A stretch of 64,000 bases of DNA from Thermodesulfobacteriota bacterium (GCA_040754095.1 JBFMFO010000011.1:13737-77736), one strand, 5' to 3'. Shown: positions 32,062-52,159, counted from the first letter of the stretch. Numbers and translations: made by a program. Notes: generated by a model not told the origin, from the letters alone.

Positions 32062-32080
32062 AACGCTCCTTGACTGGTTT

Positions 32081-32215: not shown

Positions 32216-32220
32216 AGGCT

Positions 32221-33444
32221 TTATATCTCAGCTTTCGGCACCACCACAATGCCGGAGGGATCGACAAAGTAACGCCGGCGATCTTGTTCCATATCATAAC
32301 CTATACGCGTGCCCGGAGGCAGAGTAACATTTTTATCGATGATCGTCCTTTTTATCATTACGTCTTCCATCAGGGTAACGTGATCGAATATAATGGAGTC
32401 TTCAACTACACACCGGCTGCCCACAAAAACGTGTCTCCCCACAATCGAATTTTTTATCTCGCCGCCGCTTATGATGGTTCCGCCGGCAATCAGGGAATCT
32501 CTGACCATGGCTTCCCGGCCATACTGGTCATAGATAAGTTTTACCGGCGGCGTGGCGTAGCCGGCGGTTCTAAGCGGCCAGCGCCGGTTATAAAGATTAA
32601 AAGACGGCACAGGTGCTGTAAGGTCCATGTTGGCCTCGTAGTAGGCCTTAAGAGTTCCGATATCCCGCCAATAAATATTTTCTCCATTATTAAGGGCCCC
32701 GGGGATTTTATTTATTCGAAAATCATAGGCAAAAACCCGCCTTTTCTGGAATAAAATAGGGATAATCTCACCCGCCAGATCATATTTGCCGCTTGCTTCA
32801 ACGTCCTTTTTCAATGTTTCACAAAGCACTGTAGTATCAAACAGGTAATTACCCATGGAAACCAGGGCCGTATCCGGCCTTCCGGGAATGGGATGCGGGT
32901 TTTCCGGTTTTTCTTCGTAACCGATGATCCGCCAGTTATCGTCAACCTGTATGACTCCGAAAGGGTAGCTTTTTTCTATAGGCAAGGGTATGGCGGCAAC
33001 CGTCACCTCTGCCTCTTTTTCCCGGTGGTATTGCAGCATTTGCCTGATATCCATACGGTAGATATGGTCGGCGTTGAATATAGCCACCACTTCAGGATAA
33101 ATTTTCTCGATGAGGTGCAGGTTCTGATATACCGCATCTGCTGTCCCCCTGTACCAGTCTTCATCGGTGCGCATTTGGGCGGGCGCCGGCATAATGAAAA
33201 AGTCACTGACAGCGCTTCCTATCGTCCATCCGTTCCGTAAGTGCTCCATGAGCGACTGACACTTAAATTGCGTCAGCACATAGATGGAGTAGATTCCGGA
33301 ATTAATGAAATTGCTGAGCACAAAGTCAATAATTCTATATTTTCCACCAAAAGGAACGCTGGGCTTGGCGCGTTGCCGGGTGAGAGGGGAGAGTCTCCTG
33401 CCTAAGCCTCCCGCCAGTATGATGCCTAATACTTTAATCGGCAT
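32221..33444 (-). CDS. glgC: Glucose-1-phosphate adenylyltransferase
   Basis: Contains ILAGGLGRRLSPLTRQRAKPSVPFGGKYRIIDFVLSNFINSGI, close to the canonical GlgC N-terminus. Confidence 0.85.
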   Translation of the reverse strand: MPIKVLGIILAGGLGRRLSPLTRQRAKPSVPFGGKYRIIDFVLSNFINSGIYSIYVLTQFKCQSLMEHLRNGWTIGSAVSDFFIMPAPAQMRTDEDWYRGTADAVYQNLHLIEKIYPEVVAIFNADHIYRMDIRQMLQYHREKEAEVTVAAIPLPIEKSYPFGVIQVDDNWRIIGYEEKPENPHPIPGRPDTALVSMGNYLFDTTVLCETLKKDVEASGKYDLAGEIIPILFQKRRVFAYDFRINKIPGALNNGENIYWRDIGTLKAYYEANMDLTAPVPSFNLYNRRWPLRTAGYATPPVKLIYDQYGREAMVRDSLIAGGTIISGGEIKNSIVGRHVFVGSRCVVEDSIIFDHVTLMEDVMIKRTIIDKNVTLPPGTRIGYDMEQDRRRYFVDPSGIVVVPKAEI

Positions 33445-35811: not shown

Positions 35812-38800
35812 TCAAATCCTCCGGCATCCGGGGCCGCTCAGGTTGCTGCGACCGCCTGTCTCGGGTATTACCTGTATTTGTGTGCCGATGCGCTCCTTGA
35901 GCGTTGTGACATGTGATATGACACCAATAAGTTTGCCGTCCTGCTGCAGTTCCGCAAGAGTCTCCAAGGCTGTTTCAAGTGCATCTTCATCGAGGGTCCC
36001 AAACCCTTCATCAAGGAAGAGTGAGTCAACCCGCACATTTCTGCTTGCCATATGAGAAAGGCCGAGCGCCAGGGCAAGGCTCACAATAAAGCTTTCGCCG
36101 CCGGAGAGATTCTTCGTGGAACGTATCTCACCCGCCTGGTAGTTGTCGATGACATTCAGCTCCAGCGGTTGTGATGTATCGCGTATGAGCAGATAGCGAT
36201 CCGTCATCTTCCTGAGCCGGCGGTTGGCATGCGCTGTCATCATCTCGAATGTCAGACCCTGTGCAAAGTTCCGGAATTTCTTTCCGTCGGCTGAGCCGAT
36301 AAGTTGATGCAGGTCATCCCAGCGTGTGCATTCCTTTTTCCGGGTTTCAGTGCTCTTTATGCGTTCCTGCTGCTTTTTCCTTAGTTTCTCGTTTTCACTT
36401 AAACTCCTTATGATTCCGCCAATATCAAGTCTTATCTGTTTCAGTTCTGAATCACAGGCGCTTATGTTTTCTTTAAGCGCCTCAACGGGTTGATATGTCA
36501 GGTTTTTTTCACGTTCGGAGGCAAGCGCCTCCGACCTGTCCTTCCGGCGGGCGTCAAGTTCCGTTTTTTCCTTGATCAGGCGTTTCTCTTTGTCAGCGAG
36601 GATTCCCCGTTCTTCCTCCGTCAGGCGTGATGAAAGGTAGTCTGCCTCGTCTTCAAATCCCGCCGTTTTGATCCGCTCCATCAGTTTCGGCCCGGCCTGC
36701 GCCAGTTCTTTTGCCCGCTTTCCTGTTTTTACTTTCAATAAATCTATTTTCTCTTTCAGGGCGCTGATCTCTTTTTCAATTTGCCCGTATTCTTCGCGTG
36801 CTTTTTCATAAGCTTTACCCGCCTTATCCACGGCGTCCGCCAGATGTTTTTCCTCCTGGTCAGCGTTCTTTTCTCCGAAGAGTCCCCGGCGTGAAGCACA
36901 CAATGATTCATACTCCATCTTTAGATCGTCACGATCTTTGCGCCTTGCCGCCAGATCTTCTTCCAGGCTGCTCAGGAGGGCATTATATTTCTCAATCTCC
37001 GCTTTCAGTTCACGGATCTGTTTTTCCAGCGTGATTTTTTCAGCCTCTTTTGCCTGCCAGATATCTTTGTGTCCGGTCAGGTCTTTCAATAGGGCGTCGA
37101 GACTGTCTAACGGAATCCGGCTGATCCCGAATGGTACGACATCCTTAAGGGCATCGTTACGGGCCTTTTGAGTCTCTTCCGCCAGAGCGGCGCAATCTTT
37201 GGTCAGCCGTTCATGATCACGACCGGCCGTCTCCAGTTTGTGTCTGGCCTCCTGTAAGGCCTTTCCTGCGTTGTCAAGGGTCTTTCTTGTTTTTTCCAGT
37301 ACCGTCTGCGCCGATTTTTCCTGTCGGCCATTTTCTTCGACCAGGGCAACGATACCCCTTGTTTCGGCAATTTTCGCCTGTACGCCGGCAATCTCTTTGC
37401 GAATCTTCCCGGCGCGATCCAACCGTGAAACTTCTATTTTCAGACTCAACAGGGCGTCGGCGCACTGTTTTTCGTCGGCGTCCAGCGTCGCATTCTTTTC
37501 TGCCATCTCTTTTTCAATATGCTGGATTTCAGTTGCGGTCCGAACCCGGTCGGCTTCCAGCTTGTTCAGATGACGAGACACCTTTTTGCATTCATCCTTC
37601 GTTTTTTGAAGCTCCGCCTCCGCCTCGTTCAAGACCGGGACATTCCCCTTTGCATAGGGATGCTCCGTAGCGCCGCACAGCGGGCATGGTTTGCCGTCTT
37701 CAAGTTGTTTCCTTTCTTCCTCAAGGTCACGGATACGGCTGAGGAGTAATGCCTGTGTTTCCAGGGTTACAATATCTTTTTCCAAAATCGCTTTTTTATC
37801 GGCGCAGGATTTTATCTCGTCGGAAAGTTTCGCATAACAGACTTTTAATGTTTCAAGACCTGTTTTCAGGCTGTCCAGCGCAGTGTATGTCTTGTCAATC
37901 CGTGCAATGGTCTCGCCTGTCTGGATCAAAAGACGCTCGCGGTCTTTAAGGGCATCTGTATCATGACGCCACTGGCTGATTTCACGTCCCCTGAGGATAG
38001 CCGTGATTTCATCAGTCAGGTGCTTAAGTTCACTTTGTCCTTTCTCAAATTCCTGGCGGGATTTTTCATGATCGGCTTCGCTTTTGGCGCACCCGGCAAG
38101 GGCGGATTCCTTTTTCGCGGCTGCCGTGGACAGTTCTTCCCGGGCTTTTATATGCTTTGCCTCAATATCGCGAAGCAATGCAAATCCCTTGTCGATGGCG
38201 CTGAGGTTGGTCAGCAACGCGGCATCGGCAGCGTGTTTTGCCTGGTATTCACGGATAGCTTTCAGGGCGGCATGAGCCTTTTTCAGCTCCTGTTCACCGC
38301 TTTTGACAAGGCTTCTGTAGCCTTCCCCCTGTTTTTCGATTTCTCCGATTGCCTTGTTTTTCTCTGCGAGCTGCTTTTTCTGTTCACCCAGCCGGGTGTC
38401 GATCTCACGCACCTTTTTGATGACATCCCTTTCCGACATCTGCCTGGTTCGTGCCTCATTCAGCCGGGCCTCTGCGGCCTGCCTTACGGTATGCGCATCT
38501 GCACAGGCCTTATCCTTTTCAGGCAGAATCGCGATTGCGCCATTAAGCTCCTTTGTCTCATTGTCCTGCTGTACGCGCAAAGCATCTACCCTGCTGTAAT
38601 CGCCTTCAAGACTGAGGGCCTTGCGGGATTTTTCCAGCTTTTTTGATTCCGGCGCAAACGCCTGCCGGCGCTTCTCGAAATCCTGCTGTTTCTTGTCCAG
38701 TTCTACCAGCTCTTTCTCCAGGGCAACCATCCCCTCGATCCAGGTCAGGGCCTTGCGCATTTCACTCACTTTTCCGGCAAGTTCCGTCTCCTGGCCTTGC

Positions 38801-39483
38801 TTTTCTTTCAGGCCGGATTGCAGTTCCCTTTCTTCATCTTCGTTTAAAACCTGGATTCCTTTCAGTTCGGCCTGCAATATCTCAAGCTTGTTGTGTTCTT
38901 CCGTACGGCGTTGATGAACTTTCATGGATATCCGGCTGTAGATTTCGGTCCCGGTGATCTGCTCCAGGATGGGCGCCCGCTCGTCGGGAGGGGCCTGGAG
39001 AAAGGCCGCGAATCCCCCCTGGGCCAGCAGCATCGAACGGGTGAAGCGCTCGAAGTCCATGCCCGTGGCCTTCTCGATGAATTCGCCCACCTGGGTTATC
39101 TTTGATTCCAGGACGGCCCCGGAATCGGCATCGGCTATTTCATGCCTGGCCTGCTGAAGCTCACCCTCAGGCTGTTTCCGGGCGCGGTGCTGGCTCCAGT
39201 GGCAACGGTAACGGCCCTTCTGCGTCTGGAATGTCACCTCGGCAAAGCATTCACCCGTTTGGCGCGACATGATTTCGTTGCTGCTTTTCGTAACCTTATC
39301 CAGGCGGGGCGTCCGGCCGTAAAGCCCGAGGCAGATGGCGTCCAGGATGGTCGTCTTTCCTGAGCCTGTAGGGCCTGTGATGGCAAATATACCGTCAGAC
39401 GAATAATCCGGGTGGGTGAAATCAACCTGCCATTCGCCCGTGAGTGAATTAAGGTTCTTGAACCGGACACCAAGTATCTTCAT
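35812..39483 (-). CDS. sbcC: SbcC/Rad50-type exonuclease ATPase subunit
   Basis: The Walker A reads FAITGPTGSGKTTILDAI. It has a long coiled coil, the zinc hook GKPCPLCGATEHP, the signature LSGGESF, and the D-loop LFLDEGFGTLD. Confidence 0.85.
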   Translation of the reverse strand: MKILGVRFKNLNSLTGEWQVDFTHPDYSSDGIFAITGPTGSGKTTILDAICLGLYGRTPRLDKVTKSSNEIMSRQTGECFAEVTFQTQKGRYRCHWSQHRARKQPEGELQQARHEIADADSGAVLESKITQVGEFIEKATGMDFERFTRSMLLAQGGFAAFLQAPPDERAPILEQITGTEIYSRISMKVHQRRTEEHNKLEILQAELKGIQVLNEDEERELQSGLKEKQGQETELAGKVSEMRKALTWIEGMVALEKELVELDKKQQDFEKRRQAFAPESKKLEKSRKALSLEGDYSRVDALRVQQDNETKELNGAIAILPEKDKACADAHTVRQAAEARLNEARTRQMSERDVIKKVREIDTRLGEQKKQLAEKNKAIGEIEKQGEGYRSLVKSGEQELKKAHAALKAIREYQAKHAADAALLTNLSAIDKGFALLRDIEAKHIKAREELSTAAAKKESALAGCAKSEADHEKSRQEFEKGQSELKHLTDEITAILRGREISQWRHDTDALKDRERLLIQTGETIARIDKTYTALDSLKTGLETLKVCYAKLSDEIKSCADKKAILEKDIVTLETQALLLSRIRDLEEERKQLEDGKPCPLCGATEHPYAKGNVPVLNEAEAELQKTKDECKKVSRHLNKLEADRVRTATEIQHIEKEMAEKNATLDADEKQCADALLSLKIEVSRLDRAGKIRKEIAGVQAKIAETRGIVALVEENGRQEKSAQTVLEKTRKTLDNAGKALQEARHKLETAGRDHERLTKDCAALAEETQKARNDALKDVVPFGISRIPLDSLDALLKDLTGHKDIWQAKEAEKITLEKQIRELKAEIEKYNALLSSLEEDLAARRKDRDDLKMEYESLCASRRGLFGEKNADQEEKHLADAVDKAGKAYEKAREEYGQIEKEISALKEKIDLLKVKTGKRAKELAQAGPKLMERIKTAGFEDEADYLSSRLTEEERGILADKEKRLIKEKTELDARRKDRSEALASEREKNLTYQPVEALKENISACDSELKQIRLDIGGIIRSLSENEKLRKKQQERIKSTETRKKECTRWDDLHQLIGSADGKKFRNFAQGLTFEMMTAHANRRLRKMTDRYLLIRDTSQPLELNVIDNYQAGEIRSTKNLSGGESFIVSLALALGLSHMASRNVRVDSLFLDEGFGTLDEDALETALETLAELQQDGKLIGVISHVTTLKERIGTQIQVIPETGGRSNLSGPGCRRI

Positions 39484-39494
39484 TCCCCTTTTTC

Positions 39495-40724
39495 CTATTC
39501 AGCCATCTGGTCTTGCTCGTTGAGGGAGACTATGATTTCCCGGTAGGCGCTCAAAAGCTCCTGACGCTGATCCTCCGGGACTTCGTGCGATTCAAGGCAG
39601 CGTTTAAACACGTCTGTTACGTCCAGGTCGTCGAGTGTTTCATCCACATCCATTCCGCTCATGGCGCGTTCCAGCACCCGGTTGTTCTTGACGCGGAGAA
39701 TCTCTATACCGGTCCCTTCGATTGCCTCATCCAATCGCTCGCGGAGGCTGCCGGCTATCTCATCTCCTTCATATACTATTTCCAGCCAGGCGTTGCTTCC
39801 CCCGGACTTTAGTTCTTCGATATTTCGTGCGATGGTTGGCCAATCCCCTTGCAGGGTCTTCAGTTCCTGGAACCTGGGTACTGGAATAATTGCGACAGTG
39901 GGCGAATTACCCGAAAAGTCCACGAGGACCACGCCCTTTTCCTGTTCAGCTTCCCCGAAGCCGATGGGCAGGGGTGAACCTGAATAGCGTATGAAATCTG
40001 AACCGCCCACCGTTTGAGGAATATGAAGATGCCCCAAGGCAAGGTAATCGATATGTTCGGGAAACACATCTGTTTTGACCTTTAAAAGGGAGCCAATATA
40101 CAGTTCGCGCACTCCATCGCCCTCAATGGTCTGGCCGCCTGCGGTGAACAGATGCCCCATGGCGACAATCGGAACAGGCTTTTTCAGCGTGGAGCGTTTC
40201 TGTTCGGCCGCCTCATACACCATATGGTAATGAGCCCTGATCCCTTCTATGATTTTCCTCTCCTTGTCCTCAACGCTCTCACCGGCCTCGGCAGTGCGGA
40301 TATCGCGGTCTCTGAGATAAGGGATGGCGCAGACAATGAGCCGGGGCTCCTGATCCGGCCCGGCAATCACGATCAGTTCATCCGCAGGAGAATCGGATGC
40401 ACACCCCACGACATGGATGTTCAGAAATTGCAGGAGCTCCCTGGGGGCATTTAAAAAAGACGGCGAATCATGATTTCCTGCCGTGACCACTACATGACGG
40501 TTTGGAGAGGCCGCCACACGGTACAGGAAACGGTAATACATCTCCTGTGCAAGGTTGCTGGGCGTGCTGTTGTCAAAAACGTCTCCAGCCACAAGCAGCA
40601 CATCTATGTCTTCATCCTCAATAAAACCAGCCAGCCAGTCAAGGAACGCCTTGAGTTCCTCGTATCTCTTGCGGCCATACAGAGCGCGGCCGATATGCCA
40701 GTCGGAGGTGTGGAGAAGCTTCAT
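39495..40724 (-). CDS. sbcD: SbcD/Mre11-type nuclease subunit
   Basis: Contains MKLLHTSDWHIG, LLVAGDVFD, GNHDS and GHLH, the calcineurin-like phosphoesterase motifs. Confidence 0.9.
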   Translation of the reverse strand: MKLLHTSDWHIGRALYGRKRYEELKAFLDWLAGFIEDEDIDVLLVAGDVFDNSTPSNLAQEMYYRFLYRVAASPNRHVVVTAGNHDSPSFLNAPRELLQFLNIHVVGCASDSPADELIVIAGPDQEPRLIVCAIPYLRDRDIRTAEAGESVEDKERKIIEGIRAHYHMVYEAAEQKRSTLKKPVPIVAMGHLFTAGGQTIEGDGVRELYIGSLLKVKTDVFPEHIDYLALGHLHIPQTVGGSDFIRYSGSPLPIGFGEAEQEKGVVLVDFSGNSPTVAIIPVPRFQELKTLQGDWPTIARNIEELKSGGSNAWLEIVYEGDEIAGSLRERLDEAIEGTGIEILRVKNNRVLERAMSGMDVDETLDDLDVTDVFKRCLESHEVPEDQRQELLSAYREIIVSLNEQDQMAE

Positions 40725-40851
40725 GATTTTCCTTCCTTCGAGACTTTAAAAAATACTCTACATGTCATTGCGAAAGCGAAGCACACAAGAATCAGATCAT
40801 TCTTTTTGATAATCCATGTAAATTTGTCTTTGTCTATGTTGCCAATGAATG

Positions 40852-43800
40852 TCAATCCTTGCCTTGCTGAGTAGTCCGTAAATACTTGGCATTGCGATAA
40901 CGACCAAGAAGGCTTTGCAATTCCATCTCTTGTGAAATATTTGTCGGACCGAAAGTTGAGGTGTCAGAAGTTTTGATGTCGTTGATATTTCCTATTTTCT
41001 TAAGGCAGGCTTGTGCGAAATCCAACCACTCACTTGCAGCGGAATTTCCATTTGCAAATTGGAGCATCTGTTCAAATAAGTTGGAAACACCAGCAGAAAT
41101 CTGTTCTATTTCAGAATCGAATCTACCCAATAGTTTCTCAGCAAGTTGGATCTCAAAAGGCTGATTTTCATCTATCCGATTTCTCACAAAATGGACCGTG
41201 TTACGTATGATATTAAGGGAGCCATAAAGGCGATAGAACTCATTCTCTAAGTATGCTTCATCAAGCGAGATTTGCTCAAGGGGTGGCAAGACCTTAAATA
41301 AAGTTGCTGGTGGCTCAAGTGGCAAGAGAGCCCACTCTTTGCTCTCCGCCTTTCCTTCTATAATTTCTTTGATTTTATCGAACGCGATTCGCCAGACATG
41401 CGAGGAATAGCGAGATCCTTTCAAAAGCGGTACGAGATAGACAAAATGACATTGATGGGGGAACGAAGCTAATTGTTCAAGGATTAATGCAATCTCTAAG
41501 AAGACATGTTCAAAATTTACAACATCAAAGCCTAACACAAGTCCAATTAGGGGATGTTCCAAGAAAGGAGCTGTAGGATAAACAAACGAGAACCCTTGTT
41601 CCGTGAGCGGGATTAATGTCGCACAAAGAGCATCTGTAAACTGTTTTCTTTGATTATGCCGCCGTGCATCGATAGCGGACCGTAAATTGTGCACTTTACC
41701 CGATGGACGTTCGAACCAGAAATCCAATATGTCTGCGAGATATGAATAGCTTGCCGATTCCTGTTCATCAAGGTCACTCATATCAAAATATGATTGCGTT
41801 TCTGTAACTATGCTATGGAAAGCCCGATGCGCGCCAGGTATTTGCGTGACAGCATCCTTGAGATTGTAACGCATAAGCCGACTTGATTTTTGTGCGTCAT
41901 CATTTAGGTCATGTTCGGCGAACTGCATGACAAAGTTTCTCATGCTCGTTTCCCAGCCACCAATAAGCTTCTGTTCTTCATTGAATCGTTCTGCCAACTT
42001 GACAGGTAAGTCTTTCAATCGCTGTGCCTGTTGTAATGATTTTCTCAACGAATCATTCAAAGCATCTACTTTCGGTTGCCGACCATTAAATAACCATTTA
42101 TAGAACTCAGTACATTTACTAACAAAGTCCAACAGTTCTGTCCGGAGGATAAACCATTGTTTTTGCCACTCGTAGACTGATTGGGAAGTATAATAGGCTT
42201 TAATAGCCTTCATATATATTGCGTTTTTCTCAGCATCTATTTCTAATCTGAGCGTATCATTTGATATTGCCTTTTTTGTATCATCCACAGGTGGTTGCAG
42301 TCCAAGAAGCGAGACGTAAAGACCTTGGCTGCAATAATGCTGGTAATCGGGAAAGAACTTACGGAGATTGCGGAGTCGTTCAACAGCCTGGTCACTTGGT
42401 CTCATGTTTCCTTTTTGCTCATCAACGATGAATTCGATATAAATATCACCATTTCGTTCATTAATCAGTAAAGTATCGCTGCTTAGCTTGAAGAAACTCA
42501 TAAGCGAATCTTTTTCAGTGGCTAAAATATGGTCATAATTTTCGCGGGCATGATCATGGAGAACTATGAGGAAATTCGCTGCTGATAGCAGGTCCGCCTT
42601 ATAGATTTGATCTTGCCAGTCGCGTTCACTGAGAGTCTGTACTATTCGGTATGGGCTAATTCCAGGGAGCTGGCACCAACCCAACAAAGCGCCGATTTCT
42701 GAGAAGTCCGTTATCAGGCGATCAGCAGTGACATTATCGATGGCCATTTGCAAGAACTTGACTTCATAACGTTCATCCCATTGCCGTGGGGTGAATTGTT
42801 TTGCCAGATCGGATAACAGCGTATAATTAGGATGATCTACCCCAAAGACTCCCTTCAAATTTTCCAACAAGTTGATTGTTTGGAAAGGCAGTGTCCCTGA
42901 GCAAAGAATAAATATGCCAGGAGAGCCTATCTGATCGAATGCTGTATCAAATAAGCCCTGATGCAGGCGATAGTAAGTTACCTCGCTGGCTCTGAACAGG
43001 GCTTTGGCGATTTTGTTGATTATGCTAAGAGGTTCTTGCTGACATTTAGAAACCAATGCATCGAGTAAACAGGCATGATCTAAGCCGGAATCAGCAAATG
43101 TACTGCTGATGAAAGGTTCAAGGTTATCCGCATCAAGTATTTGGACCGATTCGATCATTGTATTTTCAACTGGAATAACACCATGCAGCAGCGGGATAAG
43201 ATGCTGAGACCGCACAAAGTGCAACCCCTCGCAAACACCATCAGTAAATAGCAGATATTCTCTTTCCAGTGACCTGAGCGTTGAATCAGGATCTTGTTCA
43301 AAAGGAATATGCTGCAAAATCGACTTAATAGCTACCTTTGCACCATAAGCCTGCGCGACGCTGACCAATCGCAATATTTGCAGCTTGGCTTGATCCTCAC
43401 CAAGACGCTGCAATTGTTTCACCTGATCCTTTAGCCGATCCGCAAGCATCTGTCCGTGTGTGACAAGGTAAGTGTATTCAATCAACAACTGACGATCCGC
43501 AACCTGTTCGTAGGCCCACTCTGCGGAAGGCACACCACTGGCTATTTTCCCTTTGCTCTGAAACTGGGAAAAGATGTTCTGCGCTTCTTGGAGGGATAGC
43601 GTAGGTGTTACTATTTCCCATACAAATCCACTTGCATTGCCCGAGTAGCGAAACCAATCCTCTTCACGGATGGTGATCAGAAAATAGACTTCCTGACCTG
43701 CAAATTCGGCTGCCAGTTTGTGCCAAAACTGCAATCCCTCACTCACGTTGTCAATAAAGATAAGTATCGGTAAGCCAAGTCGCTGCCGGGCAACGACGGC

Positions 43801-44823
43801 CTGCTTGATCGGGCTTACCATACTCTCATCACTCAATTGTTTAATGACTAGTGCCGTTTCCGGATGATAATGTTCGAAAGCATAACGATAGAGCAAGGTT
43901 GACTTTCCCTGACCACTTGATGCCCTGACAATACAAACGTGAGAACGCTGCAGTGCTTCGTGAATACGAATTTCCCAATCATGTCTGCGCACATCCAGAT
44001 CCGCCAGAATGTGACCAAGACGAGCATTTTTCCCTTCGTAGTAATCTTCAGGATGCTCTTCTTTCTCGAACTTGAGCCGTTCTATCCATCCATTTTGAGT
44101 GGCTGGGTTCTTTGATCCTAAATTTATTTGTTCTTGAACGAAAAGACGAATAGACTCCAGATCAACACGCCGCACTTCTTTACGCTGGGAAGCCAGCTCA
44201 ATAAAATTGCTCATCAACACGCCGAAATACAAATCGGCATTACATGTGGTTAAATCAAACGCTGTTATAATTGCATCCGTGACCTTCTTCATCAATTCTT
44301 CATCAATGATACGGACAAACGAAATGTGTCTTATCAGTTCTTTAAGATCAATACCCTGATAACCTGCACGCCTACAAAGGTCATGAAGATTACGGTTCAT
44401 CTTATTGGACAGGATGTTGCGGTCACCTTTGCAGAATTTGACAAATTCATCAAGTGCACCAGTGTATCCAAAATTGGTTACAACTAACAGGGTGGCTGTC
44501 TGATCAGCCGATAAGACGGGCAGAAAGTTCTGGATAATTCCTGACCTAGCGAATCTACTCCAATCCCAAGCTTTTTTTGAGGTTTTGACCTGAACATACT
44601 CATTGGATACATTGAATCCGGTGAACTCAATATGTTTATGGCCTTTGAGGTCCACGTCTTCAATGCCCTCCAACTGAATGCTATCAGGTGCATCAGGCTT
44701 AAAAAGATCGAATGTTCGGTATACGGCATAAGTTAATTGATATTTGATGCCTGATATATTTGCAGCTCCGTGATAACGGCTTTCAAATAATTGATTCAGT
44801 TGGTTATCGATACTCGGTTCCAT
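40852..44823 (-). CDS. Large (1323 aa) candidate defence protein: Cap4/DUF4297-like PD-(D/E)xK nuclease head, P-loop STAND-like NTPase, and about 900 aa of unassigned C-terminal region
   Basis: Residues 25-80 read GIKYQ...IQLEGIEDVDL...EYVQVKTS. The Walker A is VCIVRASSGQGKSTLLY (nt 43897-43923) and the Walker B-like motif is LPILIFIDNV. It is AT-rich relative to its neighbours and lies between sbcCD and a type I R-M operon. Confidence 0.6.
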   Translation of the reverse strand: MEPSIDNQLNQLFESRYHGAANISGIKYQLTYAVYRTFDLFKPDAPDSIQLEGIEDVDLKGHKHIEFTGFNVSNEYVQVKTSKKAWDWSRFARSGIIQNFLPVLSADQTATLLVVTNFGYTGALDEFVKFCKGDRNILSNKMNRNLHDLCRRAGYQGIDLKELIRHISFVRIIDEELMKKVTDAIITAFDLTTCNADLYFGVLMSNFIELASQRKEVRRVDLESIRLFVQEQINLGSKNPATQNGWIERLKFEKEEHPEDYYEGKNARLGHILADLDVRRHDWEIRIHEALQRSHVCIVRASSGQGKSTLLYRYAFEHYHPETALVIKQLSDESMVSPIKQAVVARQRLGLPILIFIDNVSEGLQFWHKLAAEFAGQEVYFLITIREEDWFRYSGNASGFVWEIVTPTLSLQEAQNIFSQFQSKGKIASGVPSAEWAYEQVADRQLLIEYTYLVTHGQMLADRLKDQVKQLQRLGEDQAKLQILRLVSVAQAYGAKVAIKSILQHIPFEQDPDSTLRSLEREYLLFTDGVCEGLHFVRSQHLIPLLHGVIPVENTMIESVQILDADNLEPFISSTFADSGLDHACLLDALVSKCQQEPLSIINKIAKALFRASEVTYYRLHQGLFDTAFDQIGSPGIFILCSGTLPFQTINLLENLKGVFGVDHPNYTLLSDLAKQFTPRQWDERYEVKFLQMAIDNVTADRLITDFSEIGALLGWCQLPGISPYRIVQTLSERDWQDQIYKADLLSAANFLIVLHDHARENYDHILATEKDSLMSFFKLSSDTLLINERNGDIYIEFIVDEQKGNMRPSDQAVERLRNLRKFFPDYQHYCSQGLYVSLLGLQPPVDDTKKAISNDTLRLEIDAEKNAIYMKAIKAYYTSQSVYEWQKQWFILRTELLDFVSKCTEFYKWLFNGRQPKVDALNDSLRKSLQQAQRLKDLPVKLAERFNEEQKLIGGWETSMRNFVMQFAEHDLNDDAQKSSRLMRYNLKDAVTQIPGAHRAFHSIVTETQSYFDMSDLDEQESASYSYLADILDFWFERPSGKVHNLRSAIDARRHNQRKQFTDALCATLIPLTEQGFSFVYPTAPFLEHPLIGLVLGFDVVNFEHVFLEIALILEQLASFPHQCHFVYLVPLLKGSRYSSHVWRIAFDKIKEIIEGKAESKEWALLPLEPPATLFKVLPPLEQISLDEAYLENEFYRLYGSLNIIRNTVHFVRNRIDENQPFEIQLAEKLLGRFDSEIEQISAGVSNLFEQMLQFANGNSAASEWLDFAQACLKKIGNINDIKTSDTSTFGPTNISQEMELQSLLGRYRNAKYLRTTQQGKD

Positions 44824-45138
44824 AAAGAGCCTGATATTAAAAAGTTATGAGTTAGAATGCTATTTTTTCAAATTATACTCAACTGCACATTTCAGGAAGA
44901 ACGCAGCCGGATTTTCCCCGATCAGGAAATACGCTGTCAAGCATTAGCACATTTCATTAGGTATTTAACAGGTTACTCCGGAAGTCCACACTGAACATTT
45001 GTATTTGAAATACAGGTTCTCCTATTTTTTTAGGCGGCAGGAAACTAAACGTTTAAAATAGCGCATAGCTACCGAGGAGAACGGTTCTTCTTGCAGCACC
45101 CGCAATCATTAACTTATGACCTGAGCAGTTTTTTATAT

Positions 45139-45486
45139 TCATAAGCTCCTTGTCACACTTCCATTTCGTTCCGCCAAAATCGCTTCCCACCCAGGTAGAT
45201 AGGCGTTCATCAGGCTCTTGAAGAGTTTGCCGTGATTGGGAACCTGGAGGTGGAGGAGTTCATGGATGATGACGTATTCCTGAAAAACTCTCGGCTCCTG
45301 AAGAAGATCAGCGCTGAAACATATCCGTCCTTTGGCTGAGCATGACGCCCACTTTTTCTTCATGATTTGGACTCGAATCTGCACGGGGTTCACCTTCATG
45401 ATGGCAGCCCAACGGGCAATTTCGGATTTAAACTGTTCTTTCGCAGACAAGCCCTTTCCTTTGTTATTGGATGGTTGAACATGCAT
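45139..45486 (-). CDS. DUF45/YgjP-like zinc metallohydrolase, N-terminally short (possibly truncated)
   Basis: Contains KKKWASCSAKGRICFSADLL...EYVIIHELLHLQVPNHGKLF (HExxH). The first 22 codons of the track ORF are encoded by repeat B2, so I moved the start to the ATG at 45486. Confidence 0.6.
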   Translation of the reverse strand: MHVQPSNNKGKGLSAKEQFKSEIARWAAIMKVNPVQIRVQIMKKKWASCSAKGRICFSADLLQEPRVFQEYVIIHELLHLQVPNHGKLFKSLMNAYLPGWEAILAERNGSVTRSL

Positions 45487-45590
45487 AGCGAGCGCATTCC
45501 CCGCTGCTTGCGGCGGGGTTAGCGAGCGAATATGATGCATTTTACCTTGCATACGGAGATTCCCCGCAGCTTGCTGCGGGGAGCTTCAAT
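45475..45590 (+). repeat. Family-B double-hairpin repeat, copy 2
   Basis: Reads ttgaacatgcatagcgagcgcattccccgctgcttgcggcggggttagcgagcgaatatgatgcattttaccttgcatacggagattccccgcagcttgctgcggggagcttcaat. Its last base touches the hsdR stop codon. Confidence 0.9.
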
Positions 45591-48505
45591 CATTTACGAT
45601 CCAGCCTCAAGAGTTTTTCAACAATGCCCAGCATCAAATCCTTACCGACGACGGGCAGCATCAGCTTGTACAGTTCCGCTTTGAGCTGCCTCAGTTCCGC
45701 AATGTTGTCCTTGAAATTCGGGAAGCGGAGAAATGCGTTATTGACAATCGGGGCGAGGCTATCAAACCACTTCACGTTTTCCTGTTTGAACAGCCAGTAA
45801 ATTGTGAAGGTGTTTATGTCGAAACCTGTCTCTTCCTGCTGTCTCCGGGCTTCGAGAACCTCTTTGATCAGCGCCTCTATTTTCTTAAGAGCGTCAAGAG
45901 CTGTTATCTGCCGGTCATCGAAAGCCTCCTGAATGGCTTCCGCCCTTTCCCCGATGGGTTTCAGATATGGACTTTCTTCGCCTTCATCCGTTGCCGTTTT
46001 GATGATACTGTTGATGAGATTGATGACTTTTATATTGGTCGATGCTTTGCTGTCTTTCAGCGCCTTCAAGGTCGTTTCATCGATCTTGACTGCCGGCGTT
46101 GTGGCCTCCAGGCCAAAGGTTGCGGCCTTTTCCCTGACCAGTTGCTCCGTCTTTTTTGCGATGTCACCGTAGAACCCCGTTTTTTTTCTGAAGGCATTGC
46201 GAACAATCTGGTAGAGTATCGAGAGCAGGCCAAAGTCTTCCATATGGTCCCGAAGGGCGGGGGAAGGAGATAATATCTCGTAAAGCGTTTCCAGCTCTTT
46301 AAATAACTTATAAAATTCCTCTCTCTTGCCCTGATCAACGAAGGCATCTATTGCCCTTTCGACCATCTTATCATCTACCTTGCCGCGGGTCAGATCGAGG
46401 TACGGCCGGGCTTGTCCCTTCATCAATTCGATAAAGCGAGCGAGCAGGACATCGAGGTTGTTGATCACCCCGCTGACGACGTCGGAATCGAAGGCCAAGG
46501 CCTTTTCCAGTTTCTCAAAGATTCCTACAAAATCAACCACCAGCCCGCAGGGTTTCTTGATGTCCCCTTCTTCCTCGTAGGGGCGGTTGACGCGCGCGAT
46601 GGCCTGAAGAAGGACATGGTCGCGCATCGGTTTATCCAGATACATGCAATACAGGATAGGGGCATCAAAGCCGGTAAGCAGCTTATCCGTTACAATGAAG
46701 ATTTTTGGCAGGGCATCCGGCTTCGGGAAAAGCTTTCTGGCTTTCTTCTCCTCTTCCGCTGTCTGCTGGTGTTTGTAAACGAGGGGGTATTTTTCACTGT
46801 CATGCTGGGCGGCGGTATAAATAGCCGATGAATAGTCCGGCGGCAGGAGTTTATCGAGGGCTTCCTTGTAAAGGGCGCAGGCCTCCCGATCCACACCAAC
46901 CACAAAGGCCTTATAACCCAGTGGCTCAACATTCTCACGGAAGTGCCCGGCAATGAAGGCCGCCACCTTCTCCACACGGTCCGCCGACTTGAGAAAGGTC
47001 TTGAGCTTTACCGCCCGGTCGAGAATCTTGTTCAATTCATCGACATCGCTGACCCCTTCCGCCTCAACAAGGTCGAGAAATTCCCTTTCCAGTTCTTCTC
47101 CGGGTACACGAATTTCATTCGGGGTCAACATATAATTGAGGGGAAGCGTCGTGCCGTCTTTGATGGATTCCGCAACGGAATATTTGTCCAGGTAACCTTT
47201 ATCATCCTCTTTTCCGAAGATTTTGAAGGTTCCCTTGCCATAGGCCGTTTTGTCAATCGGCGTGCCTGTAAAACCGATAAGAGTTGCCTGCGGGAGGGCG
47301 GCGACCAGGTAGTTGCCCAGGTCTCCCCCGACAGACCGGTGCGCCTCATCCAGCATGACGATGACGTTGGGGCGGGTGCAGATGTTCTTCGGAATCCCTT
47401 CAAACTTATGGATCATGGAAATAATCAGCCCTCTGAAGTCCGCCTTGAGGAGTTGCCTCAGGCGAACCTTGTTGTAAGCCTGTTCAATGCTGATATCATG
47501 GGACTGCATCTCGCCGAGAATCCGCTCCACCCAGCCGGAAAGTTGGCCCTCCAGCTCATTGCGGTCGATCATCAGGATAACCGTCGCCTTCCCGAAGACA
47601 TCCTTTTTCTCAAGAATCTGCTGCGCCGCCGTGATCATCGTGAAGGTTTTTCCCGATCCCTGGGTATGCCATATCAGGCCGGTTTTTTTGTTTTCATCGG
47701 CGCACCGCTGAACGATTTTCTCGATAGCCCTGGTCTGATGCTGGCGCAGGATCGTTTTCTGGAGTTCATCATCCTTGACGTAGAACAGGATCCATTCCCC
47801 CAGCATCTTGAGGAAATGCTCCCGGTCAAAAAAACGCTTTACCTTCTTTTCGAAGTTTCCCTTTTCCTCATCCTTCCAGTTGAAGATGTTTTTCCGGTTC
47901 AGATTCCAGGTGGGGCCGTAGAAAAAATCAACCAGATGGGTCATATCAAAGACCTGCGGCGCCGTCAGCATTTCCGGGGTCTCCCGGTGATACCGCCGGA
48001 TTTGAATGAGCGCCTCTTCCATTCCATTGGCCTTTTTCGCACTCTTGGTCTCCACGATGGCAACGGGAATCCCGTTGATGAGAAACATGATGTCCGCGCG
48101 GTTTGTCTCACGGCCGTTTGTGTACTGCCACTCGGAGGTCACCTGAAACAGGTTACGCCCGGCGCGGGCAAAATCAATAACCGTCACGTTGCGCCGCCGC
48201 TTTTCGTTTTCATCGTAAATGGCCTGCTCCCCCCGGAGCCAGGACAGGATTTCCGCATTCCCCTCGATATTATTCCGGACGGCTTCCATGCGGTGAATAA
48301 TGTCATCCACATTTTCACGGCACACCAATCCCGGATTCAGTTCAATCAGCTTTTCTTCGAGAACCCGGTAGAACAGAGGCCCGCTTTCCCCTTTTCTAAG
48401 GGAAAGGGCCTCCTCCTGGGGGACGACTTCCCAGCCGATTTCGTCCGCATACTTAACGATCGGGTCCTGCACGGTTGGTTTTTCTGTGCCTAAAGTCGGC
48501 GTCAT
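45590..48505 (-). CDS. hsdR: Type I restriction enzyme R subunit
   Basis: 971 aa. Contains the helicase motif I WHTQGSGKT, the DEAH box MLDEAHRS, FTGTP, and an N-terminal nuclease region ADIMFLINGIPVAIVETK. Confidence 0.9.
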   Translation of the reverse strand: MTPTLGTEKPTVQDPIVKYADEIGWEVVPQEEALSLRKGESGPLFYRVLEEKLIELNPGLVCRENVDDIIHRMEAVRNNIEGNAEILSWLRGEQAIYDENEKRRRNVTVIDFARAGRNLFQVTSEWQYTNGRETNRADIMFLINGIPVAIVETKSAKKANGMEEALIQIRRYHRETPEMLTAPQVFDMTHLVDFFYGPTWNLNRKNIFNWKDEEKGNFEKKVKRFFDREHFLKMLGEWILFYVKDDELQKTILRQHQTRAIEKIVQRCADENKKTGLIWHTQGSGKTFTMITAAQQILEKKDVFGKATVILMIDRNELEGQLSGWVERILGEMQSHDISIEQAYNKVRLRQLLKADFRGLIISMIHKFEGIPKNICTRPNVIVMLDEAHRSVGGDLGNYLVAALPQATLIGFTGTPIDKTAYGKGTFKIFGKEDDKGYLDKYSVAESIKDGTTLPLNYMLTPNEIRVPGEELEREFLDLVEAEGVSDVDELNKILDRAVKLKTFLKSADRVEKVAAFIAGHFRENVEPLGYKAFVVGVDREACALYKEALDKLLPPDYSSAIYTAAQHDSEKYPLVYKHQQTAEEEKKARKLFPKPDALPKIFIVTDKLLTGFDAPILYCMYLDKPMRDHVLLQAIARVNRPYEEEGDIKKPCGLVVDFVGIFEKLEKALAFDSDVVSGVINNLDVLLARFIELMKGQARPYLDLTRGKVDDKMVERAIDAFVDQGKREEFYKLFKELETLYEILSPSPALRDHMEDFGLLSILYQIVRNAFRKKTGFYGDIAKKTEQLVREKAATFGLEATTPAVKIDETTLKALKDSKASTNIKVINLINSIIKTATDEGEESPYLKPIGERAEAIQEAFDDRQITALDALKKIEALIKEVLEARRQQEETGFDINTFTIYWLFKQENVKWFDSLAPIVNNAFLRFPNFKDNIAELRQLKAELYKLMLPVVGKDLMLGIVEKLLRLDRK

Positions 48506-49035
48506 GATTTCGCCCTTATTGTATATTGTCCCTGTTGATCAGGTTCACTATGACCTTGACGATGATGTCCTTGTCTTCGGGCTGGCTCCCGGCCTTCCAT
48601 GACCCGCTGCATCAGGCTGACTGTCTTCTGCAATTCAAGCAGGCGGGCATTCTGTTCCTTTAGCCGCTTCTCATTGAGCGAATAGCCTTTCAGGATATGA
48701 TCTTTGAGGACCTGCGTGGCCCAAATGCGGAACTGGGTGCCGCGTTTTGAGTTCACGCGGTAGCCAAGTGAAATAATGACATCCAGATTATAGTAAACTA
48801 CCGGTTTATCGGAACCAGCAATGTGCATTTTTTGCACATTGCTTTTTTTATCCAATTCCCCGCTCTTGAATATACTGCTCAAGTGCTTTGTGATGACGGA
48901 CCGGTCCCTGTCAAAAAGGATGGACATCTGACCTTGATTCAACCAAAGGGTCTCTCCGCTCAGGTTGACTTCCATGGCAGCCTTACCGTCCTTTGTACGA
49001 TAGATGACTATTTCGCCTTTGGATTCTTCCTTCAT
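48502..49035 (-). CDS. RhuM-family protein, C-terminally truncated or frameshifted
   Basis: Contains IVIYRTKDGKAAMEVNLSGETLWLNQGQMSILFDRDRSVITKHL...YYNLDVIISLGYRVNSKRGTQFRIWATQVL. The tail GREPARRQGHHRQGHSEPDQQ has no family character. Confidence 0.65.
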   Translation of the reverse strand: MKEESKGEIVIYRTKDGKAAMEVNLSGETLWLNQGQMSILFDRDRSVITKHLSSIFKSGELDKKSNVQKMHIAGSDKPVVYYNLDVIISLGYRVNSKRGTQFRIWATQVLKDHILKGYSLNEKRLKEQNARLLELQKTVSLMQRVMEGREPARRQGHHRQGHSEPDQQGQYTIRAKS

Positions 49036-50333
49036 GCGCTTACCTCGGACACATCAATGTCCAGATCCTTCACACGAATCGCGCCCGTCATCAGCTTATT
49101 CAACATGGTTTTGAAGAGGTCTTGCAGGGCGGATTTCTTTGCTGTGTGGTGATCAATCTTGTGGTCAATAGCTCGGAGAATTTTTACGATTTCAAGCTGC
49201 TCTCTATCAGATGGAAAAGGGATTGATATCGGTTCGACATCTTTTTTATTCAGCTGAGGGGTCGGACCTAAATCTTGGATACTGGCTAAATCAAACGTCA
49301 AGAACCAATAATATAAAAACTCACTTGTGATACGAGCACGTGGGATTATAGCAATCAAATTAGGATCAAGAAGTGACCATAGTGTCGTGAGCCTTTTCTT
49401 ATTGGTTGCTATAGCAGCTCCTCTCTTTGGAAAAATAACGGAATTAGCTGGGATGGCTTTTTCATAAACAAGTTTTGATGAAAGCTCTACCTCTATATTT
49501 GCAGCAAAGATATATTTTTCGTTTCCAGGTAAATTCATATCTGACACTTTAATCGCGTGGCAAAGAACATCGTTATTCTTTGATCTTCCTCGATTCAATT
49601 CATTAAAGGAAATCGTAGAACTCCGCACATCGCAGCATTCACCTATCTTTATAAGGTCCCAACTCTCGGGCATCGGTCCAATCTCCGTTTCTTTCAATCT
49701 CTCTCCACGCAGGCCGTGAGTAAAAACATGGTGCAGGGTAGATTTTTTCAGCACCCGCGTCTTTTCGATAATGGATTCCTGAATCTCAATAGCTTTTTGA
49801 ATCTTGAAGAGAACGGCGGCGATTTTTTGCTGCTCACTTAATAAAGGAAAAGGGATGAATAGTTGTTTTATGAGGTGAACCGGAACCCTTTGTCTTCCCG
49901 TTGCCCCTTCCATTTTCCCGGCGATTAGTTTACGGACATCACTTTTTAAAAGGTAGTAATATAGAAAGTATTTGCTGCTCGTTCCGGCTTTTTCCTTGAT
50001 TGGAATTATCTCTGTTGAGGCAATGCCAAATCCATTAGGTAATCCGGTGACAATACATTGCTTACCATTTTCAAAACACGGGGTGATTTTCGCTAAAAGA
50101 ATGTCACCATCTTCAATGTATGTCCCGCTTGAAATTTCCGTTGATTTCTTTAATTTGAATTTGTCCAAATATAGTATGTCAATGGGTATCAAGTCCATTG
50201 CAATGAAAGGTAACTGGTCATAATTAGAGTATAATATCTCTTTCGGTTTTTTCGTAAAATCATACAGCTTCCCTATGGGCACAACATCCCAGTCCTCAGG
50301 TAAGCGGCCCAAAATATTGTCATTATTTCTCAC
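49032..50333 (-). CDS. hsdS: Type I restriction enzyme S (specificity) subunit with two target-recognition domains
   Basis: It lies between hsdM and hsdR with overlapping stops and starts. It has two half-repeats, each ending in a conserved helix ([33 protein letters not shown]). It is AT-rich. Confidence 0.8.
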
Positions 50334-52159
50334 AGGGTTTTCCCGCCAATTTGAGTTCCTAATTTGTTGAAAATTACATCCAAGTCAGTATTTATGGCTC
50401 TGGCTTTCTTCTCTAAAACGGAAAGCTCGTCCAGAATCTCGGGTATCGGCCGGTAGGTTTCTCCTTCATTCACATCCACATACCTTGACGGCGACAGGTT
50501 GAAGTCGTTCTCGGCCGTCTGTGCTTTTGTAATGACTTTGACGAACTTCTCGATATCTTCCCCTTTGATGAAGGCATCGGCGATTTTGCGGACATTTTCA
50601 TCGGGGATATAATTTTTCGGCCTGCCTTTCTTGAATTCCCGCCCGGCGTTGACCAGGATGATCTTTCCCTGCCGCACCTTCGGTTTTGCCTTGTTGAAGA
50701 CGATGATGATTCCGGCGGCGGTGGTGTTGTAGAAAAGGTTGTCCGGCAGGAGGATCACGCCTTCAATCCAGTCACGCTCGACAAACCATTGGCGGATTTT
50801 TTTCTCCCTGTCCTCACTTTTGCTTCCGCTGCCCCGCGTGACGGCCCCCGTGTCGAGGACGATGGCGGCGCGGCCGTGGGTATTCAGCGATGCGACCGTA
50901 TGCTGCAACCAGGCCCAGTCCGCCTTGCCGGTGGTGACGCCGCCCTGGGCTTCAAAACGATCGAAGGGATCATTTTCATAAATGGCCGGATCGAAGGGCT
51001 GGTTCCACATTGGATTGGAAACGACGATGTCGAATTTCTTCAGGCTGGAATCAGAGTCTTTGAATTTAGGATTGGTCATGGAATTGCCGCGGACGATCTC
51101 GCCTTCCATGTCATGAACGACCATGTTCATCCGGGCAATGGCATAGCTGGAACCCATCAGCTCCTGCCCATAGAGTTTCAGCGGCCTCTGCACCTTGATC
51201 TCACGTTCCTGCAAAGCGAGTTCGCATTTGATCAAGAGGCCCGCTGAGCCGCAGGCATAATCATAAACCTCTTCTCCCTGGCGCGGACGCAGTATATAGG
51301 CCATCAGCCATCCCACCTCCGTAGGCGTGAAGAATTCACCGGCGCTCTGTCCCTGGCCTTCGGCAAATTTGCGCAAAAGATATTCATAGGCACGGCCGAG
51401 AAAATCCGGCTCGACATCGTAAAGACCTAAACGGTAGCGGGGATCTGAAAGGGTTTCGATTACACCGGACAGCGCCTTATCGCTGATTTCACGTTCTCCG
51501 CTGCGGGTTTCGTTATAATCAACAATATCGATCACCCCCGTTAAAGACGGATTGGCCTTAGCGATCGCTCGGACGGTCATTGTGAGCTGCTCACCCAGTG
51601 TTTTTGGTTTGCGGTCTTCAGGCCAGTTGAATTTTTCACGACCGCTGACCACCGGCCAGCGTGCCTCCGTAGGAATATAAAACCGGACCAGTTGATGATC
51701 GGCCTCGATGATGGTAAGCGCTGTTTCCCTGTCTCCGTAAGTTTCGGCCAGCCGTTCAACTTCATCCTCAAAGACATCAGAGAGGCGCTTAATAAAAACA
51801 AGGGGGAGGATATAGTCTTTGAACTTCGGTGCGTCTTTTTCACCGCGGATGGAACAGGCGGCGCTCCAGAGCATCTGTTCCATGGACTTCGTACTCAAAA
51901 CATCCTCCTTGGACAGCTTCCGGCGTCGATTCTTGTGATTGATGCCAATATCCCCTGCGCTCTCCAGGTCGAAGCCCGACTCTTCTATTAACTTTAAAAT
52001 AGCTTCCCTGGCCTTTCCGCGGGGCGATATCTTCTCGTTTTCCCAGCGGTTCACAGTGGCAAAAGAAACGTTTAGTTTTGCCGCTAATTCTTCCTGACTA
52101 AGATTTAATCTATTTCTGATCTCTTTGACGACCTTACTTATATCTTTGCTATCGAGCAT
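50330..52159 (-). CDS. hsdM: Type I R-M N6-adenine DNA methyltransferase M subunit with an N-terminal XRE-type HTH
   Basis: Contains [19 protein letters not shown] and VVSNPMWNQ (an NPPW-like motif). The N-terminus [26 protein letters not shown] is an XRE-type HTH. Confidence 0.9.

Follow-up and report, generated by a model that had tools for sequence, protein, structure and literature searches.

We examined a 64,000-nucleotide stretch of DNA from Thermodesulfobacteriota bacterium (GCA_040754095.1, JBFMFO010000011.1:13737-77736), here called the window, with positions counted from its first letter. At 40852-44823, on the minus strand, the ORF list and the translation give an open reading frame (ORF) of 1323 aa plus stop that begins with ATG, just as an original prediction, made from the sequence alone, had described it. 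The features of this gene, the target of the analysis, are the following:

40852..44823, minus strand: complete gene, Cap4 nuclease plus nSTAND5 NTPase plus family-specific sensor (ORF list, translation, Pfam, homologs)
44074..44823, minus strand: Cap4/DUF4297-type PD-(D/E)xK nuclease effector, residues 1-250 (Pfam PF14130, PADLOC, Foldseek)
44584..44670, minus strand: predicted catalytic motif E52, E55, D56, D58 ... Q78-x-K80, residues 52-80 (homolog alignments)
43144..44046, minus strand: STAND nucleotide-binding and oligomerisation module with nucleotide-binding domain (NBD), helical domain and winged helix, residues 260-560 (Pfam PF25199, model, Foldseek)
43897..43923, minus strand: Walker A motif ASSGQGKST, residues 301-309, with K307 (alignment of 40 homologs)
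43744..43767, minus strand: Walker B strand ILIFIDNV, residues 353-360, with D358 (alignment, model)
40855..43026, minus strand: family-specific C-terminal sensor region, residues 600-1323 (model, Foldseek, Pfam, profile search)
42214..42474, minus strand: conserved alpha/beta core with R816, P825, Y830, K851 and N867, residues 784-870 (alignments)
40855..41226, minus strand: fastest-evolving C-terminal helical tail, residues 1200-1323 (identity comparisons)

The original prediction had placed a DUF4297/Cap4 endonuclease signature at the N terminus, and the motifs lie where it had put them: GIKYQ at residues 25-29, LEGIEDVDL at 51-59 and VQVK at 77-80 of the translation. Pfam Cap4_nuclease (PF14130) matches residues 25-89 above its cut-off (28.2 bits against 26.2), and the best PADLOC match, the LmuA nuclease-domain model, covers residues 23-269 (9.8e-9). 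E52, D56, D58, Q78 and K80 were invariant in 40 homologs, down to 27% identity; in a larger alignment of 101 homologs, E52, D56, D58 and K80 were invariant and Q78 was conserved in at least 90%. The next module agreed equally well with what had been proposed, a Walker A motif followed by a Walker B-like strand about 50 residues on. Pfam nSTAND_NTPase5 (PF25199) matches residues 260-395 with 42.5 bits against a cut-off of 34, spanning profile positions 2-142 of 145. Among 40 homologs, S303, G304, Q305, G306, K307 and S308 were invariant and D358, which sits 51 residues after K307, was conserved in at least 90%; R386, E388, W390 and R392 (invariant) and D389 (at least 90%) follow the strand after Walker B, and H535, R538, S539 and H547 of the winged-helix region were again invariant, as were several positions in the last third of the protein. 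Since both Pfam domains pass curated thresholds and the key residues are conserved, the nuclease and NTPase motifs are not chance occurrences.

An AlphaFold2 (AF2) model of residues 1-640, built from the family alignment (pLDDT 89.5, pTM 0.79), has strands at 353-357 and 379-385 and a beta-hairpin "wing" at 524-533. In Foldseek searches it matched Avs3 best (8dgc, 5e-12), then Avs4 (8dgf, 4e-9), human SAMD9 (7e-9) and EfAvs5 (1e-8), with further matches to CED-4, ZAR1 and the CBASS nuclease Cap4 (6vm5/6wan, 4e-6); the highest TM-scores were against SAMD9 (TMq 0.33-0.36). By these matches, the N-terminal half has the make-up of Avs3, a Cap4 nuclease followed by a STAND module, and the nuclease domain corresponds both to Cap4 and to the N terminus of Avs3. 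By analogy, R386 is a candidate sensor-1 arginine and H535 or H547 a possible counterpart of the winged-helix histidine; K307, D358 and R386 appear to match in position the nucleotide-contacting K292, D358 and R395 that PMC13581612 gives for SeAvs7.

About 760 aa lie C-terminal to the winged helix, and in keeping with the expectation that no domain could be assigned to this part, they have no Pfam assignment. An AF2 model of residues 600-1323 (pLDDT 92.9, pTM 0.87) has short helices at about 600-780, a beta-beta-alpha-beta-beta subdomain at 784-854, seven long helices at 855-1075, a second alpha/beta subdomain at 1087-1169 with a topology similar to the first, and then a helical tail. Searched with Foldseek against 350,542 PDB chains from entries up to April 2026, a library that included Avs3, Avs4, EfAvs5 and SAMD9, the model gave no match at E<=1e-3 (best 0.47), and the same was true against the viral models of BFVD. 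Sequence searches of PDB with the target protein and with the family profile gave no match, and Pfam run at E<=1 on 66 C-termini of the family found no TPR and no family, just scattered noise such as PSDC (six members, 0.004). The sensor had been described as unlike known TPR sensors, and the absence of TPR matches in Pfam, the two modelled alpha/beta subdomains and the lack of a Foldseek match to solved structures support its not being TPR-like.

The 66 C-termini share only 13-42% identity with the target, and 13 positions are conserved in at least 90% of them (P646, W716, R816, P825, Y830, K851, N867, Y878, R894, Q967, N987, E1022 and P1083). At the other extreme, the tail at residues 1200-1323 has an identity of 0.60 among the five closest homologs, against 0.74-0.86 elsewhere in the protein. 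From this pattern of conservation, the sensor joins a deeply conserved polar core to a fast-evolving tip. Two candidate relationships of the subdomains were tried and rejected: an internal duplication, at the sequence level (hhalign sub-profile probabilities at most 3%), and kinship to the N-terminal nuclease (hhalign 2.9%).

The modules are exchanged between proteins. A profile of the sensor alone, built from 8 C-terminal rows, found 614 representative proteins (50% clustering) among 1.84 billion, with 235 of them at E<=1e-30, and in the full-length proteins among the hits the sensor occupies about residues 610-1300 of proteins of about 1300 aa, behind an N terminus of NTPase length. All six sensor carriers that we examined have nSTAND5 matches, two of them above the Pfam cut-off; a subgroup of 1380-1465 aa keeps only the sensor core, and three of five examined members have sub-threshold nSTAND5 matches. 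The effector is replaced in one homolog (P0221, L175 10001-14356), which has Metallophos, a calcineurin-like phosphoesterase, in place of Cap4, keeps the NTPase and the sensor as in the target and aligns to target residues 247-1217 with 31% identity; the element around it carries an integrase, a relaxase and a TraG-like coupling protein. The reverse case is a protein of a Ruegeria plasmid, adjoining AbiE and an IS110 element, that has Cap4 and the NTPase in common with the target (residues 25-597, 25% identity) and an unrelated C terminus. Avs families typically exchange effectors and sensors around an NTPase that is conserved (PMC13581612).

The gene was said to be wedged between sbcCD and a type I restriction-modification (R-M) operon, and the Pfam assignments of the neighbours agree. 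Downstream and on the same strand are SbcD (39495-40724) and SbcC (35812-39483); upstream, again on the same strand, follow a YgjP-like ORF, HsdR, a RhuM-family ORF, HsdS and an HsdM fused to a helix-turn-helix (HTH) domain. The target and the adjacent operon make up a defence island of about 11 kb between housekeeping genes, and the rest of the window consists of ordinary metabolic genes. The features of the flanks are as follows:

45139..52159, minus strand: type I R-M operon of HTH-HsdM, HsdS, RhuM-family ORF, HsdR and YgjP-like ORF (Pfam, PADLOC)
44824..45138, minus strand: AT-rich 315-bp intergenic region upstream of the target that arrived with the gene (no counterpart in the closest syntenic genome, L099)
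40733..45136, no strand: insertion, a window segment absent from L099 (DNA homology ends at 45137 and resumes at 40732)

The nearest SbcD, 92% identical, is found in the metagenome-assembled genome (MAG) MAG151 (L099), and the next ones in MAGs of Desulfobacteraceae and Syntrophus/Smithella; the host is an uncultured member of Thermodesulfobacteriota and a relative of Syntrophales and Desulfomonilia. L099 has the gene order of the window on both flanks (HsdM, HsdS, RhuM, HsdR, YgjP, SbcD, SbcC and sugar-nucleotide genes), with proteins 87-97% identical across the shared order (HsdR 96%). Its ygjP match ends at 9872 and its sbcD starts at 10001, which leaves 128 bp between them, so the 1323-aa gene is absent there. 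Given the endpoints of the homology, the insertion measures about 4.4 kb and consists of the gene with its 315-bp upstream and about 120-bp downstream spacers. A search of the junctions for a target-site duplication or terminal repeats, direct or inverted, gave none with a length of at least 9 nt, and the window contains no known RNA or tRNA landmarks for an integration site.

Two related MAGs carry different genes in the same slot between ygjP and sbcD. L085 (7589-9982) has an AAA_13 ATPase of 797 aa with a match to the PADLOC candidate PDC-S06 (3e-297) and weaker similarity to PrrC and LmuB, and L083 (3038-9758) has a 486-aa DUF2779/Cas4-like gene together with a 1721-aa protein in which a TOTE-type archaeo-eukaryotic primase is fused to a reverse transcriptase (RT). 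The fusion matches the PADLOC models RT_UG10_large (6e-48) and PrimPol (2e-29) and, judged by these matches, resembles the defence-associated RT UG10. The ygjP-sbcD slot is a defence hotspot with exchangeable cargo. In related Thermodesulfobacteriota it stands vacant or contains one of three different defence cargos, a clean natural experiment that is useful for studying the turnover of defence islands.

The gene is indeed more AT-rich than its surroundings, as had been noted, though the shift of about 8 points is moderate and not extreme: its GC is 0.430 against 0.506 in the window, and its GC at third codon positions (GC3) is 0.415 against 0.58-0.65 in sbcC, sbcD, hsdR and hsdM. A consensus scan gave TTGACA-18-GAAAAT (44940..44911) as the best promoter-like site upstream of the target. 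In the scan of the target's surroundings for promoters and terminators, the site counts did not exceed the shuffle expectation, and the site is therefore only a candidate promoter.

Several observations were made on the flanking genes themselves. The YgjP-like metallopeptidase ORF (45139-45552, minus strand, 137 aa) closes the R-M operon and marks the upstream edge of the variable slot; it spans only positions 112-199 of the 207-position Pfam profile and looks short or truncated. The RhuM-family ORF (48502-49035, minus strand, 177 aa), lying between hsdR and hsdS inside the operon, matches the PADLOC candidate families PDC-S05/PDC-S23 (about 1e-57) and keeps its position in L099. HsdS (49032-50333, minus strand; GC 0.40, GC3 0.41) is about 44% identical to its L099 counterpart in a partial alignment, compared with 95-96% for HsdM and HsdR, and the specificity subunit has thus apparently been replaced. 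HsdM (50330-52159, minus strand, 609 aa) has an Xre-type HTH_3 domain at residues 11-49 fused to the methyltransferase. Beyond sbcC, at 29546-33444 on the minus strand, lie three tandem paralogues of 421, 417 and 407 aa, each with an NTP_transferase and a GlmU-like hexapeptide domain, that are mutually 32-43% identical (tblastn on L099).

Relatives of the target are numerous, with 610 found among 5.8 billion proteins. The 120 listed are almost all 1300-1340 aa long, show 89-100% query coverage and 29-87% identity and are unnamed or "hypothetical", and all 120 carry a precomputed annotation with PF25199. MCX5806770.1, RCV65353.1, MCC6612633.1 and WP_243803491.1 belong to the family. An alignment-based scan found the family in at least 169 species-representative genomes, a lower bound; a single-sequence scan of species genome contigs found no close relatives. 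The distribution is patchy over at least 10 phyla, the carriers including Acidobacteriota, Chloroflexota, Bacteroidota, Cyanobacteria, Planctomycetota, Firmicutes, Campylobacterota, Deinococcota and, among archaea, Methanophagales, Methanocellaceae and Halobacteria. Chryseobacterium, Flavobacterium, Mucilaginibacter, Brevibacillus and Engelhardtia mirabilis are carriers that can be cultured. In 39 homologs the mean identity to the target was 0.54 in the NBD of the NTPase, 0.50 in its helical and winged-helix part, 0.40 in the nuclease, 0.45 in the sensor at 780-870, 0.31-0.34 in other parts of the sensor and 0.23 in the last 140 residues. The NTPase is thus the most conserved region of the family, and the sensor subdomain at 780-870 is about as conserved as the nuclease. 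At least part of the target is matched by 13 plasmid records of PLSDB, 7 of them conjugative plasmids. A search of a phage collection gave one weak partial match only, and the family is therefore not typically phage-borne. One plasmid copy, on pREB4 of Acaryochloris marina (L054, NC_009929.1 65631-70310), is interrupted by an IS1-like ISAcma4 transposase, which divides it into two ORFs, and is inactivated.

We then considered the surroundings of the homologs. No neighbouring gene family is common to more than 13 of 80 homolog loci, and same-strand neighbours are mostly more than 90 bp away; with no shared neighbour family and such wide gaps, the gene works alone. Counted per family among 129 immediate neighbours, the PADLOC matches were GajA/PtuA/AriA-type ATPases (4), Old (3), AbiLi (3), mad3 (3), type IIG R-M (2) and PD-T4-6 (2); Pfam additionally found DUF932, RadC, integrases and Eco57I. 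In most of the annotated loci, the surroundings of the homologs include R-M, AbiE, KAP NTPase or mobile-element genes, as in these cases:

L163: Eco57I-type methylase, HNH, two integrases and a TIR-NB-ARC-TPR protein near homolog P0009
L164: insertion sequence (IS) element and AbiEii fragment near the homolog
L166: AbiEii adjoining the homolog; DUF6094 helicase and Nmad3
L168: HsdR, large helicase and integrase near homolog P0036
L169: type IIG enzyme and PLD-SNF2 helicase adjoining the homolog
L171: conjugative element with ParDE and KAP NTPase near the homolog
L172 (Hymenobacter plasmid): MmeI 3 kb from the homolog
L174 (78%-identical homolog): KAP NTPase and tyrosine integrase adjoining

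The neighbourhoods of homologs had been proposed as a check, and its outcome was favourable: R-M or AbiE genes lie within 5 kb of the homolog in 4 of 11 independently annotated loci, a small sample classified by Pfam names, whereas the published probability for a random gene is 0.0153; by our own rough binomial estimate, P is about 2e-5. Two large proteins in these loci are worth recording. The TIR-NB-ARC-TPR protein (L163 6439-8880, 813 aa), 1.1 kb upstream of P0009, is an NLR-like candidate. A 1675-aa ORF with no Pfam match (L168 13986-19013) starts 10 bp before the stop codon of P0036, with which it may be co-transcribed in that lineage; a partner like it was seen in none of the other loci.

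With this domain composition, its intact motifs and stand-alone organisation, its insertion into a defence slot and the modular exchange in its family, the target is quite probably a horizontally acquired, stand-alone antiviral STAND protein, Avs-like and NLR-like in the bacterial sense, that works by the mechanism outlined below. The proposal of a single-gene Avs-like system of effector, STAND NTPase and large sensor is upheld by Pfam, by Foldseek, by the 80 loci and by the insertion slot, and the mobility of the gene by the 78%-identical homolog beside a KAP NTPase and an integrase, the copies on plasmids and conjugative elements and the shift in GC. By analogy with Avs3, Avs4 and Avs7, as treated in PMC13581612, the protein would rest in the uninfected cell as a monomer, bound to ADP and autoinhibited, until the C-terminal sensor binds an infection cue. 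This cue is most likely a protein fold conserved among phages; the range of the family over bacteria and archaea suggests a component that tailed viruses have in common. Binding would release the autoinhibition, and ATP binding through K307, D358 and R386 would then drive oligomerisation of the NTPase. Within the oligomer, the Cap4 domains (E52/D56/D58/Q78/K80) would come together as an active multimer and cleave double-stranded DNA without discrimination, and degradation of the DNA would abort the infection.

Some of our results weigh against this reading. The literature searched holds no experiment on any member of the family, and the Avs and bNACHT models of PADLOC v2 match neither the target nor 34 relatives. 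Two of the 11 annotated loci (L162 and L170) have no defence gene near the homolog, and the count of defence contexts comes from Pfam names in a small sample. The sensor, not being TPR-like, resembles no solved Avs sensor, and its near-invariant R816, Y830, K851, N867, R894 and E1022 are residues one would sooner expect in a ligand pocket or an interdomain latch than across a broad surface for binding proteins.

This pattern of polar residues gives room for a non-protein ligand or a guard mechanism, and the alternative that fares best keeps the same defence-STAND chassis and has the alpha/beta core bind a nucleic acid, a nucleotide-derived small molecule or, guard-like, an infection-altered host factor; the core might even carry an activity of its own. 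We consider it unlikely on balance, though clearly the most serious competitor. It draws on the non-TPR sensor with its two modelled alpha/beta subdomains, on R816, Y830, K851, N867, R894, N987 and E1022, which change little or not at all between bacteria and archaea even where identity is only 13-25%, and on a subdomain at 780-870 as conserved as the nuclease; moreover, some published STANDs are triggered by perturbation of a host chaperone and not by direct binding of a phage protein, according to PMC13581612. Yet nothing similar among known ligand-binding folds or enzymes turned up in the searches of PDB, BFVD and Pfam, and an autoinhibitory latch onto the NTPase, like that of SeAvs7 (PMC13581612), would account for the invariant residues just as well. 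Close homologs differ most in the C-terminal tail, the pattern one would predict if this surface were evolving in an arms race against a protein. That the sensor is a previously unseen fold whose conserved polar site (R816, Y830, K851, N867, R894, E1022) recognises a cue other than a phage structural protein is a tentative and rather unlikely idea, for which a nucleic-acid feature, a nucleotide-derived signal and an altered host factor are candidates.

A role that is not primarily antiviral seems to us improbable. The gene would then be cargo of mobile elements, serving competition between plasmids or integrative conjugative elements or addiction, or else a non-immune STAND regulator, and the copies on plasmids (13 PLSDB records, 7 conjugative), on a conjugative element and in integrase-bearing islands would fit, as would the interspersion of defence and non-defence STAND clades in the census (PMC13581612). 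However, bona fide defence genes, too, typically travel on mobile elements, non-immune STANDs normally have DNA-binding or signalling outputs and not a Cap4 with an intact catalytic motif, and the slot-mates and neighbours of the target are defence genes. That the protein is instead a LmuA-type Lamassu effector working with an SMC-like partner, here the adjacent SbcC/SbcD, is very nearly dismissed: LmuA is the best PADLOC match (25 of 35 members) and the gene abuts sbcD-sbcC, SbcC being SMC/Rad50-like, but the match is confined to the shared Cap4 domain, the target has a complete STAND NTPase of its own, no LmuB-like, LmuC-like or other partner is conserved in 80 loci, and synteny largely refutes the idea, since L099 has sbcCD without the gene and the homolog with 78% identity is found next to a KAP NTPase and an integrase.

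What NLRs are to animals and plants, antiviral STAND proteins are to bacteria, and to our knowledge each characterised family has revealed which conserved phage component is recognised. Taken as an antiviral STAND protein, the target represents a widespread family, with at least 614 representative sequences and at least 169 species genomes, that the PADLOC v2 and NCBIfam models miss, and it stands out by a confidently folded sensor without known relatives and an unusually clear hotspot context. With its trigger identified, prokaryotic pattern recognition would gain another known pair of receptor and ligand, and sensing without TPRs could come to light. If the cue is indeed something other than a phage protein, STAND immunity in prokaryotes would have a mode of sensing that is so far undescribed and that extends from Bacteroidota to methanogen-related archaea.

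The original prediction suggested an undescribed family, and this stands in part. We found no published characterisation: the literature search gave no paper naming nSTAND5 or describing this architecture, and NCBIfam has no model for the family. The NTPase clade, on the other hand, already has a Pfam model, PF25199 "Novel STAND NTPase 5", whose gathering threshold the target passes and which, as a domain model only, is silent on sensor, function and trigger. A listing of the family in the 2026 STAND census (Lee et al., PMC13581612) is, moreover, very probable, since the census, which comprises 589 clades and 684 sensor clusters, was seeded partly on Cap4 fusions and labels nSTAND clades in its tree. 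The family is thus probably new as to characterisation and not necessarily as to listing. PADLOC, proposed earlier as a check, is in line with this: across 35 members of the family, its matches were confined to the nuclease-domain models LmuA, DUF4297 and HamA.

Compared with known systems, the target shares the most with Avs3 (SeAvs3, PDB 8DGC), which consists of Cap4, a STAND NTPase and a TPR sensor of the phage large terminase. Both have the same module order, the same effector family and a single very long gene, and they would presumably share the logic of sensor binding, NTPase oligomerisation, Cap4 multimer and cleavage of double-stranded DNA. The target differs in an NTPase of another Pfam clade (nSTAND5) and in a shorter sensor (about 760 aa) that is non-TPR; no kinship in sequence was seen, the family profile finding no PDB chain, 8DGC included, and the PADLOC Avs models matching none of 35 members, and the sensor model does not superpose on 8DGC. 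Avs7 (SeAvs7), as given in PMC13581612, combines Cap4 and STAND with a bilobed TPR sensor of the major capsid protein, together with EF-Tu, and likewise resembles the target in Cap4, in equivalent positions of the Walker A Lys, Walker B Asp and sensor-1 Arg, in its stand-alone organisation and in the swapping of effectors. There the sensor is an array of TPRs with a bend, which non-STAND systems (Dsr1) also have, whereas that of the target has alpha/beta subdomains; in this comparison by description, the secondary structure, the long helices and the absence of TPR matches in Pfam speak against membership in Avs7.

The SAMD9-like Avs5 (nSTAND3), Avs6 and Avs9 and human SAMD9/9L belong, like the target, to "novel STAND" clades. 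Their effectors are different (SIR2 in Avs5, PNP in Avs6 and AlbA_2 in Avs9, compared with Cap4 in the target), and the sensor model matched neither SAMD9 (9zjv etc.) nor EfAvs5 (9jap), although the N-terminal model matched both. CBASS Cap4 and Lamassu LmuA have a homologous PD-(D/E)xK nuclease domain, whose control falls to a SAVED domain with a CD-NTase signal in the former and to LmuB/LmuC in the latter. Pfam found no SAVED domain in the target or in the 66 C-termini, and CD-NTase is not among the commonest neighbour families; lacking the SAVED domain and the partner genes, the target falls outside both CBASS and Lamassu. It belongs to none of Avs3, SAMD9-like Avs5/6/9, Lamassu and CBASS, and it has the general features of the Avs or antiviral STAND class: an intact STAND NTPase, a killing-type effector, a sensor of at least 400 aa, surroundings of defence genes (in a small sample) and modular exchange around the NTPase. 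Among characterised systems, Avs3 and Avs7 come closest to it in architecture and effector, and the SAMD9-like Avs5, Avs6 and Avs9 in the fold of the NTPase.

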